Shown: piece after piece, positions 21,806 to 26,906 of the stretch | Position numbering within the stretch: position 1 is the stretch's first letter | How the letters are laid out: every line of letters starts with the position of its first letter | From: a virus | Lineage: Duplodnaviria; Caudoviricetes | Direction: 5' to 3' (one strand) | DNA length: 64,000 nt | Virus record (IMG/VR): IMGVR_UViG_3300037424_000434 | Location: 96,001-160,000 of that record | Made by a program: the position numbers and the translations under genes | Notes under the pieces: model-generated | Databases searched by the model: none | Told to the model about the DNA's origin: nothing | Seen by the model: only the letters and a program-made list of their open reading frames with translations

Positions 21806-22138
21806 GTGAGATATGACGAATATGTTAAACGACCAAACGAAGAACATGAATACACAGAAGAACAGATTCGAGAGGTTGTTAAATGTAAAACCGATTTGAT
21901 GTATTTTATACGCAACTATATATATATTGTACATCAGGATTCGGGCGTACAGTTGTTTGATCCATATGACTATCAGATAGATTTGTTAGAAAAATTTCAA
22001 AATCATAGATTTAACGTATGTCTATTATCTCGACAATCGGGTAAATGTTTAGAGGGTGATACTGTCATAAAACTTCGTAATAAGACCACGGGCGAAATCA
22101 AAGAAATAACAATGGAAAATTTTTTTAACCAAACATAA
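21806..22138 (+). CDS. gp17: Terminase large subunit part 1 (80-aa extein to Walker A Lys) plus split-intein N-half 1
   Basis: YFIRNYIYIVH...FDPYDYQ..LL..FQNHRFNVCLLSRQSGK | CLEGDTVIKLRNK... Confidence 0.93.
   Translation: MRYDEYVKRPNEEHEYTEEQIREVVKCKTDLMYFIRNYIYIVHQDSGVQLFDPYDYQIDLLEKFQNHRFNVCLLSRQSGKCLEGDTVIKLRNKTTGEIKEITMENFFNQT
22046..22135 (+). mobile_element. Split intein 1, N-half (30 aa)
   Basis: CLEGDT block A followed by a stop after 30 aa. Confidence 0.9.
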
Positions 22139-22239
22139 ACCCGATTACTAGGCTAATAAAAATACAGTAAATTTTGGTATTATTGGTTATTGAGAGATAG
22201 ACAAAGAAAGTGTGATTAAAGAATGTTTGGAGTATTTGA

Positions 22240-22581
22240 ATGGCAGAATTTGTTGAAGAAAAATATAGTGATGAATGGGAAGTAGAAACACCCGATGGAT
22301 GGAAAGATTTTGGGGGTATAGGGAAAACAATAGAATATCAAGTATATGAGGTTTGTTTTACTGACAACACTTCTATTAAATGCGCCGATACTCATATTTT
22401 TATATTAAATGGAGTCGAAGTTTTCTGCAAAGATTTGGTATCAGGTAATGTAATAGATTCCATTGAAGGAACCTGTAAAGAAATATCACATATTATCAAA
22501 ACAAAAGATTGTGATAATATGTATGACTTGTTGGGTGTTGATGGTTCAATATATTATACTGACAATGTTGCTTCTCACAAC
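22240..22581 (+). mobile_element. Split intein 1, C-half (114 aa)
   Basis: WEVETPDGW, block B CADTH, block F MYDL, ends SHN with +1 Ser. Confidence 0.9.
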
Positions 22582-24124: not shown

Positions 24125-25813
24125 TGTGACGAATTTGCGTTTGTTGAGCCGAGCTGGAAAGCAGAAGAATTTTGGGCATCAAACTACCCAACCATTTCAG
24201 CCGCAGAGACTTCTAAAATTATTATCATCTCATGTGTTGCGGGGGATACCTATGTTTACACAGATAATGGCGTAAAACAAATATCCAATATTATCGGTGA
24301 TAGATGTGTTGGTGGCCATGAAATAGAATCCTATGGGGTATTGGGTAAAGATAAGATAAGAGGTGGCCGTTTAATCGTCAATAGCGGTATTACAAAAACC
24401 AGAAAAATCATCACAACAAATTCGGAATTGGAGGGCAGTTTAGACCATAAACTATGGTCATCAAAAGACGGTGTTATTGGTTGGCATAAAATATCTGAAC
24501 TAAATGAAGGAGATTATGTTTCACTGCAATATGGAATGAATGTATGGGGTAATAATGATCATATTGGATATGTATCACAGAAGAGAAGAAATAAACAAGG
24601 GAAAAGTTTAAATGTCGAAAATATAACAGAGGATTGGGCATATTTATTTGGATTATATATATCAGAGGGGTGTGCTGATAAGTACAGACTCAATATTTCA
24701 TGTGGCGATGATATATCGGATATTTTTGATAGACTGGGGCTTTCATATTCATGCAGTGATGGTATGCATTATGTTACAAGCAATCTATCATTAATAGAAT
24801 TATTAGAGCACGTTGGGTTCGATATAGCTAAAAACGCACCAGATAAAATAATACCAGACAGATTGATGTGTATGTCAAAAGAAAATATAGCGGCAATGTT
24901 GAGTGGGATTTTTGATGGTGATGGCTTTTCTCGAAAGGACAAAGGAACCATAGGAATAGGATTGTCTTCAAAAAAACTCGTTCAACAGATACGAGTGTTG
25001 TTAATGAACATGGGTATGTTGGGTGAGTGGTATGAGGTGGAATCAAAACCAACAGATAAGGTCAAAGTCCATTCAATACAACACAGATATCATTTGGATA
25101 AATCTTCATCTAAGAAGTTTTATGAAGAAATTGGTTTTAGACTAAAAAGAAAACAATTAAATGAGAACATTTTAGGTAAGGTCAATGAACCAAAAAATGA
25201 CATTATACCATATTCAAAAACTTTTATTGACGGTAAAGGTATAGTCAAGGATGTCGAACAAGTTTTGGGTTCATATGTATATAATAGAGGATTGTCTGAT
25301 AACATTTCAAGAGGATTGATGATTAGGATAAAGGAATCCCTTGGTGATACATTCAGCGAAGAGATTCATGAATATTTTAACAGGAATGTATCAGAAAACA
25401 TCAAGTGGTGTAAAATAAAAAGCATAGAAGAATCAAAAAATACGGTTTATGATTTCTCATTACCCGATAATATCGATGATGAGTGGTGCCATTCAGTTAT
25501 ATATAATGGATTTATAGGTCATCAGACACCTAACGGTCTGTATAATAAATTTCATGAAATATACAAAAACGCAGACGAAAAAACCAACTCATTCATAGCA
25601 ACTCGATATGATTATTCAGCCGTTCCGGGCAGGGATGCTGAGTGGGCTAAAGTTCAGAGAATGAACCTAGGGCCAATCAAGTTCCAACAGGAATTTGGAT
25701 GTTTTTTTCAAGATACTGTAATCACTATACAAAATGAAGAAACAGGTTTAATCGAAAATATTACCATAGGGGAACTAAATAAACGAATGGGGCAAGAGAT
25801 TGGTCATGAATAG
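23789..25813 (+). CDS. gp17: Terminase large subunit part 3: IntC2, 36-aa extein, cis intein, 58-aa extein, IntN3
   Basis: ...QILTSN | CDEFAFV...SNYPTISAAETSKIIIIS | intein | TPNGLYNKFH...VPGRDAEW...FQQEFG | CFFQDT... ATG 23789 follows GAGGAAAGG. Confidence 0.93.
   Translation: MEQEFIKNSRYEIYGESGWENFDGVVVNTGDFDIYEIKTDNHSIKCTDKHKIYTSEGVSTADEVERGDILFIQGGITEEVISTQYTGKQNTTYDIFNSDSHKVHINQILTSNCDEFAFVEPSWKAEEFWASNYPTISAAETSKIIIISCVAGDTYVYTDNGVKQISNIIGDRCVGGHEIESYGVLGKDKIRGGRLIVNSGITKTRKIITTNSELEGSLDHKLWSSKDGVIGWHKISELNEGDYVSLQYGMNVWGNNDHIGYVSQKRRNKQGKSLNVENITEDWAYLFGLYISEGCADKYRLNISCGDDISDIFDRLGLSYSCSDGMHYVTSNLSLIELLEHVGFDIAKNAPDKIIPDRLMCMSKENIAAMLSGIFDGDGFSRKDKGTIGIGLSSKKLVQQIRVLLMNMGMLGEWYEVESKPTDKVKVHSIQHRYHLDKSSSKKFYEEIGFRLKRKQLNENILGKVNEPKNDIIPYSKTFIDGKGIVKDVEQVLGSYVYNRGLSDNISRGLMIRIKESLGDTFSEEIHEYFNRNVSENIKWCKIKSIEESKNTVYDFSLPDNIDDEWCHSVIYNGFIGHQTPNGLYNKFHEIYKNADEKTNSFIATRYDYSAVPGRDAEWAKVQRMNLGPIKFQQEFGCFFQDTVITIQNEETGLIENITIGELNKRMGQEIGHE
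24233..25525 (+). mobile_element. Cis intein with LAGLIDADG domain and C-terminal Gln (431 aa)
   Basis: Starts CVAGDTYVYTDNG. SLDH block B. LFGLYISEG and LSGIFDGDG. VYDFSL...HSVIYNGFIGHQ with +1 Thr. Confidence 0.92.
25700..25810 (+). mobile_element. Split intein 3, N-half (37 aa)
   Basis: CFFQDTVITI block A after QEFG, then a stop at 25811-25813. Confidence 0.9.
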
Positions 25814-26144
25814 CATGACAGAAGTAATTAGCAACACAAAATATAAAATTCTAACCCCCACAGGATTTCAATATTTTTCTGCAATACAAAAACTAAAGAA
25901 ACCAACCATTAGGTTTATATTTGAAGATGATTCTGATTGTACCGTGTCCACAGGCCATAAATTCTATATTGATGGTAAAATATTATTGTCTGATGACGTG
26001 GTGATTGGTGATAGTCTCTACCACCAAGATAAATGGTATACCAAAGTTGTTGGTATAGAGTATTTAGGGGAATCAGATGTATATGATTTAATGGACGTAT
26101 CCAATGGTAACTTGTATTACGGAAATGGTATTTTGTCTCATAAT
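25806..26144 (+). mobile_element. Split intein 3, C-half (113 aa; AceL-TerL/Cat-like)
   Basis: KILTPTGF..F..IQK, STGH, VYDL.DV..GNLYY.NGILSHN with +1 Cys of CEF. Confidence 0.92.
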
Positions 26145-26906
26145 TGTGAGTTTATAGGATCAAGTAACACTGTCATTGATGGAAAAACTCTTGAGAGGCT
26201 TATGAAGCACCGTAAAGAGCCCGAGTCGTTGGATATGGGGGGTAAGCTGCGTATATGGGAGAAACCCAAGCAGGGGGCAACCTACGTCCTTGGAGTGGAT
26301 ACATCCAAGGGTATTGGTGGTGATTCGAGTGTAATTCAGGTAATAAAGATATTAGGTGTCAATCCAATCCAAATGCGACAGGTGGCGGTGTGGGAAGATA
26401 AATTTACAGATGTTTACAAATTTGCCGAAGTTGTCAATAAAATGTCGTATTATTATAATGATGGATATTTGATGGTTGAGAATAACGCCGAGGGGTCAGT
26501 AGTTGTTCAGAGACTGTGGTGGGAATACGAGAACCAAAATTTGATAAATACAGGTGGTAAAGTCAAAGACCTTGGTATTCGCGCTACAGGTAGCACCAAA
26601 CCTCGGGCCGTTCTTCTCATGAAGAAAGTTCTTGAAGACAGAATGATCGAAATATATGACGAAAGAACTGTTGCCCAGATATCAGACTTTCAAGACTTGG
26701 GTGGCAATAAGTTTGGTGGCGTTAATATAAACGACGATTTGGTTACCTCTTTGTATTGGGCTATATATGTCATTGAGATGCAAGTATTCGACGAGTCATT
26801 TACTTTTTCGGAAGAACAGGACGAGGAAGATGATTTCTGGGGGGATTTTTTGAGCGACTGGGAAGACGAGGCCCGCGAGGTTGATTGGTCATGGCTTCAT
26901 GATTAA
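25806..26906 (+). CDS. gp17: Terminase large subunit part 4: IntC3 (113 aa) plus 253-aa nuclease domain
   Basis: ...NGILSHN | CEFIGSSNTVID...YVLGVDTSKGIGGDSSVIQV...YYNDGYLMVENNAEG...NDDLVTSL (RNase H-like acidic motifs). Confidence 0.93.
   Translation: MNSMTEVISNTKYKILTPTGFQYFSAIQKLKKPTIRFIFEDDSDCTVSTGHKFYIDGKILLSDDVVIGDSLYHQDKWYTKVVGIEYLGESDVYDLMDVSNGNLYYGNGILSHNCEFIGSSNTVIDGKTLERLMKHRKEPESLDMGGKLRIWEKPKQGATYVLGVDTSKGIGGDSSVIQVIKILGVNPIQMRQVAVWEDKFTDVYKFAEVVNKMSYYYNDGYLMVENNAEGSVVVQRLWWEYENQNLINTGGKVKDLGIRATGSTKPRAVLLMKKVLEDRMIEIYDERTVAQISDFQDLGGNKFGGVNINDDLVTSLYWAIYVIEMQVFDESFTFSEEQDEEDDFWGDFLSDWEDEAREVDWSWLHD

Follow-up and report, generated by a model that had tools for sequence, protein, structure and literature searches.

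The large terminase subunit gene (terL) of this 236-kb, 98%-complete phage genome is very probably a multiply fractured gene, whose four pieces would be joined by three trans-splicing reactions and one cis-splicing reaction, as judged from its sequence and from comparison with other phages. The locus occupies positions 21806-26906 of the window (the whole 64,000-nt stretch of DNA that was analysed) and contains four co-oriented ORFs on the plus strand. Three atypically split mini-inteins interrupt the Walker A motif (SGK|ST), the Walker B motif (MLI|CDE) and the ATPase-nuclease linker (QEFG|CEF), and a fourth, contiguous LAGLIDADG intein interrupts motif III (IIIIS|TPNG).

Organization of the terL locus

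ORF1 (21806-22138) encodes the 80-aa extein 1 (21806-22045), which ends with the opening half of Walker A (SRQSGK), aligns with residues 1-80 of the TerL of a related phage contig (L007) and matches the phrog_5989 terminase large subunit (E 3.1e-23), followed by the 30-aa N-fragment of split intein 1, IntN1, with Cys1 (CLEGDT...) and a stop codon (22046-22138). A 101-nt spacer (22139-22239) separates it from the other half of split intein 1. ORF2 (22240-22947), with a GGAG 8 nt before its ATG, opens with the 114-aa C-fragment IntC1 (22240-22581; block B CADTH, end SHN|S) and continues through the 87-aa extein 2 (22582-22842), which completes Walker A (STIV...) and ends with the opening half of Walker B (...MLI), into the 34-aa IntN2 (CVTGDN...) and its stop (22843-22947). 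ORF3 (23783-25813) carries IntC2 (block B CTDKH, end TSN|C), the 36-aa extein 3a (24125-24232) from the second half of Walker B (CDEFAF) to the first half of motif III (IIIIS), a 431-aa cis-splicing intein (24233-25525; GHQ|T end), the 58-aa extein 3b (25526-25699; TPNG... to ...QEFG) and the 37-aa IntN3 (CFFQDT...) with its TAG stop (25700-25813). Finally, ORF4 (25800-26906) consists of IntC3 (block B STGH, end SHN|C) and the 253-aa extein 4 (26145-26906), the nuclease (RNase H-like) domain.

Re-derivation of the ORFs, stops and segment lengths, with extein lengths of 80, 87, 36, 58 and 253 aa adding up to 514 aa, reproduced the four-ORF anatomy of the original prediction. Counted from the first start codons, the IntC halves are 114, 114 and 115 aa long (the latter two from GTG 23783 and TTG 25800), but likelier starts shorten two of them. 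ORF3 is likely to start at ATG 23789, with GAGGAAAGG 7 nt upstream, giving an IntC2 of 112 aa (23789-24124), and ORF4 at ATG 25815, which lines up with the start of its homologue in L006, giving an IntC3 of 110 aa (25815-26144). The layout itself stood except for the omission of a fifth ORF between ORF2 and ORF3, which encodes a 287-aa free-standing homing endonuclease on the same strand (22944-23807).

Reconstruction of the terminase

Removing the inteins restores SRQSGKST (Walker A), MLICDEF (Walker B) and IIIISTPNG (motif III). The joined 514-aa exteins were 71% identical to the uninterrupted TerL ORF of L007 in an alignment of residues 1-512, which had three gaps in all, every one of them in the C-terminal tail and none at junction positions 80, 167, 203 or 261, while the TerL of L008 aligned to residues 1-373 with 0 gaps. 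The collinearity with L007 is far beyond chance, and all four junctions are bridged without a gap in these intein-less orthologues, as had been anticipated for gp17 homologues. Both Pfam domains of the T4-type large terminase (gp17) exceeded their gathering scores, Terminase_6N in ORF2 (extein 2; 24.6 bits, cut-off 22) and Terminase_6C in ORF4 (extein 4; 24.3-26.4 bits, cut-off 22.6), and a tblastn search with extein 4 matched the T4-type terminases of 1159 phage records. Each domain was found at a single locus across the 98%-complete genome, and this search detected no second T4-type TerL there.

Authenticity of the stops and frames

Wrong stops or frame changes, arising in assembly or sequencing, could make truly contiguous mini-inteins look split, and contiguous forms do exist at the same sites in the TerL of Salmonella phage Det7 and in L064 and L112. 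We compared the junctions with two samples, the probable source sample (X1) and one from another study (X2). X2 record 2 covers 22104-22278 (junction 1) and is identical, including the IntN1 stop and the gap downstream of it, and X2 record 4, covering 22848-23031 (the IntN2 end and junction 2), is identical as well. Junction 3, at which the two halves are only TAG plus 1 nt apart and X2 has no coverage, is supported by the X1 re-assembly and comparative data only; the Logan contig of X1, an independent re-assembly with a depth of 19, was identical across 21783-27000. The form of the junctions also counts against an artefact. The spacer of junction 1 has stops in all three frames, junction 2 contains the whole 287-aa gene, whose ATG overlaps the IntN2 stop (ATGA), and the IntN3 and IntC3 halves at junction 3, where the next ATG follows 1 nt after the TAG, are in different frames. 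Moreover, the homologues in L006 and L035 are split at the same point as junction 3, and their halves flank an endonuclease gene. With the stops being genuine, as had been proposed, an artefactual origin of the split is extremely unlikely.

Repair at the RNA level, by introns or programmed recoding that eliminate the interruptions prior to or in the course of translation, has a next to negligible probability. In an Rfam scan of 20000-28000 at E up to 1, no intron was found and the one match was a chance snoRNA-like one, in line with the expectation that the gaps are not removed from the RNA, and the 101-nt spacer had no significant fold (z 0.82). Looking for the region in RNA sequencing runs turned up none that contained it. 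Intein halves flank the interruptions, so protein splicing would still be needed.

Identity and conservation of the split inteins

IntC3 matched CatC (PDB 6dsl_B) with an E of 1.3e-16 and aligned with it through SH(N/A)|CE; therefore, the TerL site of split intein 3 is most likely that of Cat. IntC3 also scored 20.1 bits against TIGR01443 intein_Cterm (cut-off 15.6), and the IntC3-extein 4 architecture was found in more than 34 database proteins. The match of IntC1 to the same structure had an E of 2.7e-8, and that of IntC2 was weak alone (E 0.16), yet full length and in register. Against the IntC profile built in this analysis, IntC2, itself one of the sequences from which the profile was built, gave an E of 1.4e-31, and it grouped in a tree with the same-site IntC of L036, L038, L059 and L078. 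IntC1 and IntC2 are 24-27% identical to IntC3, and in the tree the Walker A and Walker B inteins form site-specific lineages separate from the linker intein. Three further IntC-like domains lie elsewhere in the genome.

An atypical split divides the Hint domain near its N-terminus, into an IntN with block A that is no longer than about 40 aa and an IntC that exceeds 100 aa and holds blocks B, F and G; all three split inteins are divided in this way, as judged from their lengths, block B motifs and terminal residues. Among 13 middle-piece homologues with identity down to 32%, H52 (block B) and S112-H113-N114 of IntC1 and Cys1 of IntN2 were invariant, and the +1 residue after IntC1 was Ser or Thr in every one. 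Split intein 1 combines Cys1 with Ser+1, and split intein 3 Cys1 with Cys+1. In comparison with L035, pN was lower than pS in every intein part, at a divergence that is saturating, and all frames were open. A complex model of IntN2 with IntC2 reached a score of 0.67, compared with 0.01 for the highest-scoring of three controls, although the predictor may owe its high score to having memorised solved split-intein complexes; the level of 0.67 was attained by 51 of 78 solved complexes and by 2 of 108 mismatched pairs. The CatC matches, the conserved catalytic residues, this model and the recurrence of the layout in independent phages all agree with the proposal of three atypically split inteins. 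Each of them is presumably specific for its own partner; cross-reaction between the pairs may be conceivable, because 13 of the 27 positions that align between IntN1 and IntN2 are the same.

The cis intein and the case for splicing

The 431-aa cis intein proposed for the third piece was borne out by matches to Pfam LAGLIDADG_3 (E 1.5e-11, 44.8 bits; cut-off 22.5) and TIGR01445 intein_Nterm (34 bits; cut-off 24.5), and its exact excision gives IIIIS|TPNG, as in L007. It begins with Cys1 and ends in His-Gln followed by a +1 Thr, departing from the canonical class 1 ending of His-Asn and then Cys, Ser or Thr. An orthologue in L035 is 65% identical and has the same GHQ|T end. Inteins that terminate in Gln tend to splice slowly, and some of them do splice.

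These unusual ends bear on whether the four polypeptides might work unspliced, with the intein halves serving as high-affinity dimerisation modules in a non-covalent assembly. Besides the Gln end of the cis intein, the Walker B-site inteins of L035, L078, L038 and Salicola phage SCTP-2 end in Gln rather than Asn, and IntC2 ends in Ser-Asn (TSN) without a penultimate His. There is also precedent in fragmented phage enzymes, such as the NrdA of Aeromonas phage Aeh1, split by mobE, whose fragments assemble without splicing (PMC3045599). However, the two halves of Walker A, like those of Walker B, lie more than 100 foreign residues apart, and distant homologues conserve Cys1, the His of block B, the Asn at the intein end and the +1 nucleophile, none of which docking needs. 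In addition, AceL-TerL, GOS-TerL and Cat, the close relatives of the third intein, splice in vitro (PMC11766414). Such an unspliced assembly is improbable.

Free-standing endonucleases at the fracture sites

The 287-aa endonuclease between the halves of split intein 2 combines treble-clef zinc-finger repeats with a Vsr-like/I-Bth0305I-type nuclease domain. It matched Pfam DUF4379 (E 6.9e-8), MTES_1575 (E 1.6e-7, below the gathering score) and phrog_559 (E 5.7e-62), and its residues 186-273 matched PDB 3r3p (I-Bth0305I; E 1.6e-4), which represents the family of Vsr-like endonucleases originally discovered in fractured genes (PMC3239194; PMC2677866). Its orthologue lies at the same place in L035. 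A co-oriented endonuclease gene is present between the intein halves at this second site and is missing from the 101-nt spacer of split intein 1 and the 1-nt spacer of split intein 3. The 101-nt spacer showed no significant similarity to endonuclease genes; an endonuclease gene occupies the site in L035 and L038. The division of each mini-intein is probably the work of a free-standing Vsr-like homing endonuclease gene, and the gene responsible would survive at the second site only.

Another free-standing gene of this family, located between phoH and terL (20620-21708, plus strand), encodes a 362-aa endonuclease with 48% identity to the one at 22944. It is flanked by a 59-nt direct repeat (20515-20573 and 21656-21714, 90% identical) that duplicates the 3' end of phoH, and L007 has no such gene between phoH and terL.

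Recurrence of the fractured terminase in other phages

Two- and three-piece forms of TerL are common in IMG/VR, and the TerL of L071 and L078 is likewise in four pieces. L035 has the first three pieces with an endonuclease gene in all three gaps, the last piece lying beyond the DNA covered, and L006 is split at the linker site. Stubs like IntN1 follow extein 1 in L035, L038, L044, L046, L071, L078 and SCTP-2. SCTP-2, a cultured phage (MF360958; only its gene 267 is annotated 'terminase large subunit'), shares the split inteins in Walker A and Walker B, the cis intein and a middle piece of IntC, extein 2 and IntN. It differs in that its TerL is in three pieces dispersed over the genome, at about 429 kb (minus strand), 257 kb (plus) and 216 kb (minus), with a longer IntN2 and no split at the linker site.

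This recurrence also speaks to whether the pieces are remnants of a decaying TerL, overrun by mobile elements in a phage that either is defective or relies on the terminase of a helper. Selfish elements are indeed many, with at least two related endonuclease genes within this stretch of 7 kb and the IntC-like domains elsewhere in the genome. By contrast, the exteins are intact, 67-89% identical to those of L035 with pN well below pS, no piece contains a frameshift or an internal stop, and the architecture is kept in several diverged phages and a cultured, viable one. As the locus also encodes the sole TerL of the 98%-complete genome, decay is very improbable.

Relation to known systems and proposed assembly

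The three split inteins resemble AceL-TerL, GOS-TerL and Cat in pairing a short IntN with a long IntC that contains block B; the proportions are alike, with IntN/IntC of 30/114, 34/112 and 37/110 aa here and of 25/104, 37/115 and 30/104 aa, respectively, in the known inteins (PMC11766414), and split intein 3 shares Cys1 and Cys+1 with AceL-TerL and Cat. Those were described as single inteins, whereas the gene of this phage holds three. The locus is also like the fractured genes of Dassa et al. (2009), in which a split intein interrupts a conserved phage enzyme and its halves flank a free-standing endonuclease gene of the same orientation, GIY-YIG or Vsr-like (PMC2677866). They include one gp17-like terminase locus, whose C-part is unusually long at 122 residues. 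However, each of those genes was 'fractured in two', compared with three fractures and a cis intein here, and, unlike in those cases, the split state has outlasted two of the three endonuclease genes; L035 keeps all three. Engineered tandem protein trans-splicing has joined three or more fragments by orthogonal split-intein pairs (PMC7090010, PMC7210297, PMC12707363), and this TerL would be a natural counterpart of that man-made process, with three atypical inteins that have short N-fragments.

The original prediction held the case to be extreme and apparently undescribed. The kinds of component are already known; for so many of them in one natural protein, our search of the literature on natural proteins with multiple split inteins found no description. 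It is not a one-off, since it recurs in metagenomic phages and, as three pieces, in SCTP-2. The DnaE of Trichodesmium erythraeum, which Liu and Yang are said to have reported in 2003, reportedly has one split intein together with cis inteins in one gene, giving two polypeptides. It is alike in being an essential enzyme that needs both cis- and trans-splicing, and differs from the three split inteins and four polypeptides of this phage.

Taken together, we propose that the four tightly packed ORFs probably share one transcript, and that each IntN stub would dock into its cognate IntC half and complete the Hint fold. The three trans-splicing reactions and the cis-splicing reaction, with no order implied for the trans-splicing reactions that the original prediction called ordered, would then yield the 514-aa TerL. 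No TerL piece would be active before ligation, because both ATPase motifs are bisected. If this is true, the sole DNA-packaging motor gene of the phage depends on the products of four genes being stitched into one enzyme.

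Four co-oriented ORFs encode the parts of one T4-type terminase

The window spans positions 96001-160000 of the source record (235,765 bp, with an estimated completeness of 98%). Six co-oriented ORFs are flanked by phoH (19425-20609) on one side and by a head-tail adaptor-like gene (27239-28984) on the other, and four of the six carry pieces of a T4-type terminase large subunit (TerL). ORF1 (21806-22138) encodes the first extein, E1 (80 aa), followed by a 30-aa intein N-fragment (IntN1), and is separated by a 101-nt gap from ORF2 (22240-22947), which encodes the C-fragment IntC1 (114 aa), E2 (87 aa) and IntN2 (34 aa). 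ORF3 (23783-25813) comprises IntC2, E3a (36 aa), a 431-aa cis intein, E3b (58 aa) and IntN3 (37 aa), while ORF4 (25800-26906) comprises IntC3 and E4 (253 aa). These coordinates and segment lengths, and the extein total of 514 aa over ORF1-ORF4, agree exactly with those of the original prediction. Between ORF2 and ORF3 lies a 287-aa endonuclease ORF (22944-23807) whose ATG overlaps the stop codon of ORF2 (ATGA). The ORF3 stop (TAG) is followed after 1 base by an ATG of ORF4 in a different reading frame, and this ATG (25815), to which the start of a homologue on the related viral contig L006 aligns, is probably the true start of ORF4; that of ORF3 is probably the ATG at 23789, with GAGGAAAGG upstream. 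Consensus scans for promoters and terminators performed no better than on shuffled sequences (31 promoter-like sites versus 32 expected), and TATAAATA is absent from 19000-28000.

The spliced sequence had been expected to align to uninterrupted terminases without gaps at the junctions, and this is what was found with the related viral contig L007, in which TerL is a single uninterrupted ORF directly 3' of phoH: residues 1-512 align with 71% identity and no junction gap, all 3 gaps falling within the acidic C-terminal tail. The alignment is continuous through SRQSGK|STIV (Walker A, residue 80, site 1), MLI|CDEFAF (Walker B, residue 167, site 2), IIIIS|TPNG (motif III, residue 203) and QEFG|CEFIGS (ATPase-nuclease linker, residue 261, site 4), and a second related contig, L008, aligns gap-free over residues 1-373. 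Both Terminase_6N and Terminase_6C passed the Pfam cut-offs, and the C-terminal extein matched TerL in 1159 phage records with about 30% identity. No DNA-level relatives of 21000-28000 were found among cultured phages.

The interruptions are present in DNA and probably remain in RNA

Stop codons produced by an assembly artefact would leave contiguous mini-inteins in the genome. X1 is the probable source run, and its Logan re-assembly (depth 19) shows no differences over 21783-27000. Contigs from X2, a second sediment sample from a different study, are identical over 22104-22278, covering the ORF1 stop, the spacer and the ORF2 start, and over 22848-23031, covering the ORF2 stop and the endonuclease start. 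The predicted stops are thus borne out in both samples at junctions 1 and 2, and at junction 3, to which the X2 contigs do not extend, in the X1 re-assembly; the two halves of junction 3 lie in different frames, and the spacer at junction 1 contains stops in all frames. We give an artefact a very small chance. Splicing at the RNA level, which had been named as an outcome that would overturn the prediction, was addressed by an Rfam scan of 20000-28000 (E up to 1), which returned no intron or other RNA family, its sole hit being a chance snoRNA-like match, and the 101-nt spacer folds no better than its shuffles (z 0.82). A search for RNA runs containing this region found none. Repair of the interruptions in RNA is accordingly the least probable explanation, with a chance close to nil.

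The flanking fragments belong to the atypically split inteins

IntC3 matched the solved consensus atypical fragment CatC (6dsl_B) with an E value of 1.3e-16, through the splice site SH(N/A)|CE, and IntC1 did so with an E value of 2.7e-8; the match of IntC2 was weak (E 0.16), while full length and in register. All three C-fragments possess the block B His and a terminal Asn, all three N-fragments begin with Cys, and the +1 position is occupied by Ser in split intein 1 and by Cys in split inteins 2 and 3. For the weakest pair, IntN2 with IntC2, complex prediction gave 0.67 versus 0.01 for the best of 3 controls. Among solved complexes 51 of 78 attained this mark, as did 2 of 108 mismatched pairs, although familiarity of the predictor with solved split inteins may account for part of the score. 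The cis intein was recognised by TIGR01445 and LAGLIDADG_3 and ends in His-Gln|Thr rather than His-Asn. Pairwise identity among IntC1, IntC2 and IntC3 is 24-27%, making orthogonality of the three pairs plausible; IntN1 and IntN2 share 13 of 27 positions.

The split intein at site 2 ends in Gln rather than Asn in three related contigs (NHQ|C in L035, SHQ|C in L078 and CQ|C in L038) and in Salicola phage SCTP-2 (SQ|C), and the window copy ends in Ser-Asn (24122-24124). The His-Gln end of the cis intein is common to the window (25523-25525) and L035. A C-terminal Gln seems to be a family trait at site 2 and at the cis-intein site.

Conservation points to selection on the split form

We aligned 13 proteins with the middle-piece layout (IntC-E2-IntN), which are 231-242 aa long apart from one longer variant. 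Identity to the window copy falls to 32%, yet all 13 retain Cys1 of IntN2, the block B His and the terminal Ser-His-Asn of IntC1 unchanged. The closest four-piece relative is L035, a 217-kb contig at which synonymous sites are saturated relative to the window; in this comparison pN is lower than pS in every intein half, the cis intein and the endonuclease, and all frames are open. No second T4-type TerL was found in the source genome (98% complete). A decaying TerL gene appears very unlikely next to this record of constraint.

Split terminases recur, and their inteins are old site-specific lineages

When IMG/VR was scanned with the middle-piece alignment, relatives of IntC1-E2 were encoded in at least 399 stretches. 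Layouts were surveyed in the best 80 of these loci, other related loci and the window, giving 58 with complete TerL coverage in a census biased towards site 1 by the query used. Of these, 31 have a split at site 1 alone, 7 are split at sites 1+2, 5 at sites 1+4 and 2 (the window and L078) at sites 1+2+4. The remaining 13 show different arrangements, and in 10 of those no split was detected. L071 displays the 1+2+4 pattern with a last piece running off the contig, and the 12.7 kb of L035 examined contains the first three TerL pieces and three endonuclease genes, the fourth piece lying beyond that stretch. In the protein database the IntC3-E4 type accounts for more than 34 clusters, besides proteins running from an IntC at residue 80 or 167 to the end, from an IntC at 80 to an IntN at 261, and from the start to an IntN at 261.

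Contiguous versions occupy the same sites in, for example, the TerL of Salmonella phage Det7 and the contigs L064 and L112. The Det7 gene (NC_027119, 1363-3573) and about 300 other cultured-phage records possess a Kuttervirus-type TerL with a contiguous Walker-A mini-intein, which is homologous to the window IntC1 (39% identity over IntC1+E2) and constitutes the contiguous equivalent of split intein 1. Split and cis forms intermingle in a tree of 114 IntC domains, where the three from the window each cluster with same-site domains of other phages, not together. The site label changes 7 times on this tree versus 34 when labels are shuffled; labels were assigned automatically and were crude for those domains that precede a Cys, some site-2 domains being labelled site 4, and only the overall clustering was used. 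Since the domains cluster by site, the three inteins are old, site-specific lineages.

The IntC profile also detected domains elsewhere in the whole source genome (G000): two long atypical IntCs at 20108-21304 (E 1.4e-29) and 181777-184221 (E 3.8e-17), and a short IntC-like end at 22572-22712 (E 4.6e-4). Both long domains nest in the TerL Walker-A clade, suggesting that a single intein lineage has moved among P-loop GK|S/T sites. In L059 (6066-7723), consecutive ORFs of 301 and 252 aa each start with a site-1-type IntC and contain E2-like sequence, which may represent a duplicated middle piece or an allele undergoing replacement.

Endonuclease genes in the gaps

The ORF at 22944 encodes treble-clef zinc-finger repeats together with a nuclease domain that matches I-Bth0305I (3r3p, E 1.6e-4). 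I-Bth0305I represents a family of Vsr-like endonucleases originally identified in 'fractured genes' (PMC3239194; PMC2677866). L035 has endonuclease genes in all three TerL gaps. A remnant of such a gene was considered for the 101-nt spacer and rejected; when the spacer was compared with four endonuclease genes by short-word blastn, nothing matched below E 0.05. Most likely, the mini-inteins were already in place when endonuclease genes split them, and these genes subsequently disappeared from sites 1 and 4 in this phage while the split state remained fixed; L035 would represent a fuller state.

Two further arrangements involve endonuclease genes. In L035 (9518-12702), the third endonuclease gene is followed by an ORF of 423 aa that has metallophosphatase-like motifs, and by a GIY-YIG/NUMOD3 endonuclease gene; extra cargo seems to have accumulated inside this split site. 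In the window, a 59-nt direct repeat (20515-20573 and 21656-21714, 90% identical) flanks a 362-aa Vsr-like endonuclease gene (20620-21708), its 3' copy duplicating the phoH 3' end, and the last residues of the ORF repeat the C-terminal peptide of phoH (LFKGQD.YGHIVL); L007 has no gene at this position. The arrangement resembles insertion of an endonuclease cassette at the phoH end along with a duplicated target.

A multi-piece terminase in a cultured phage, and implications

In the cultured 440-kb SCTP-2 (MF360958), TerL is encoded in three dispersed pieces on both strands, with two split inteins and a cis intein: E1 with IntN1 (429,485-429,712, minus strand), IntC1-E2-IntN2 (gene 267; 256,428-257,321, plus strand), and IntC2 with the rest of TerL and the cis intein (about 216-218 kb, minus strand). 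Only the middle one of the three is annotated as terminase. Since SCTP-2 can be grown, a growable phage depends on a three-piece TerL, which argues that the multi-piece design works.

Three independent trans-splicing reactions and one cis reaction would most likely yield the 514-aa TerL, with nothing pointing to a particular order. The four products might instead assemble non-covalently without splicing, leaving the intein fragments in place; since splits fall within both Walker A and Walker B, however, ligation would be obligatory for activity, and we regard such an assembly as improbable. On balance we somewhat favour natural tandem trans-splicing, in which three mutually orthogonal atypically split inteins and a cis intein would all be needed for one essential motor, a design recurring in unrelated environmental phages and, as three dispersed pieces, in SCTP-2. 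A requirement for four simultaneous products could possibly gate DNA packaging.

The genes reported by Dassa et al. (2009) were 'fractured in two', and one of the loci is a gp17-like terminase whose C-part has 122 residues (PMC2677866). AceL-TerL (25/104 aa), GOS-TerL (37/115 aa) and Cat (30/104 aa) are each a single atypical TerL intein (PMC11766414). Natural split inteins are treated as joining two protein halves throughout the literature found, in which assembly from three or more fragments appears in engineering work only; no natural protein with more than one split intein was described in the literature searched, weak evidence given that most subscription journals fell outside its scope. 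Unlike engineered multi-fragment assemblies, the window TerL is a natural enzyme in four polypeptides; it is a real, recurrent feature built of known parts, and its multiplicity appears to be the new aspect.

The N-fragments of 30-37 aa are within the range of peptide synthesis and, if the pairs are orthogonal, would offer a natural multi-segment ligation toolkit. As TerL is a common marker gene, gene callers, completeness estimators and terminase phylogenies will overlook multi-piece versions such as these or score them wrongly. The locus offers a view of how endonuclease genes may fracture mini-inteins and how the split state outlives the endonuclease, and a natural four-polypeptide enzyme would show that selection can keep several split inteins unscrambled in one protein.
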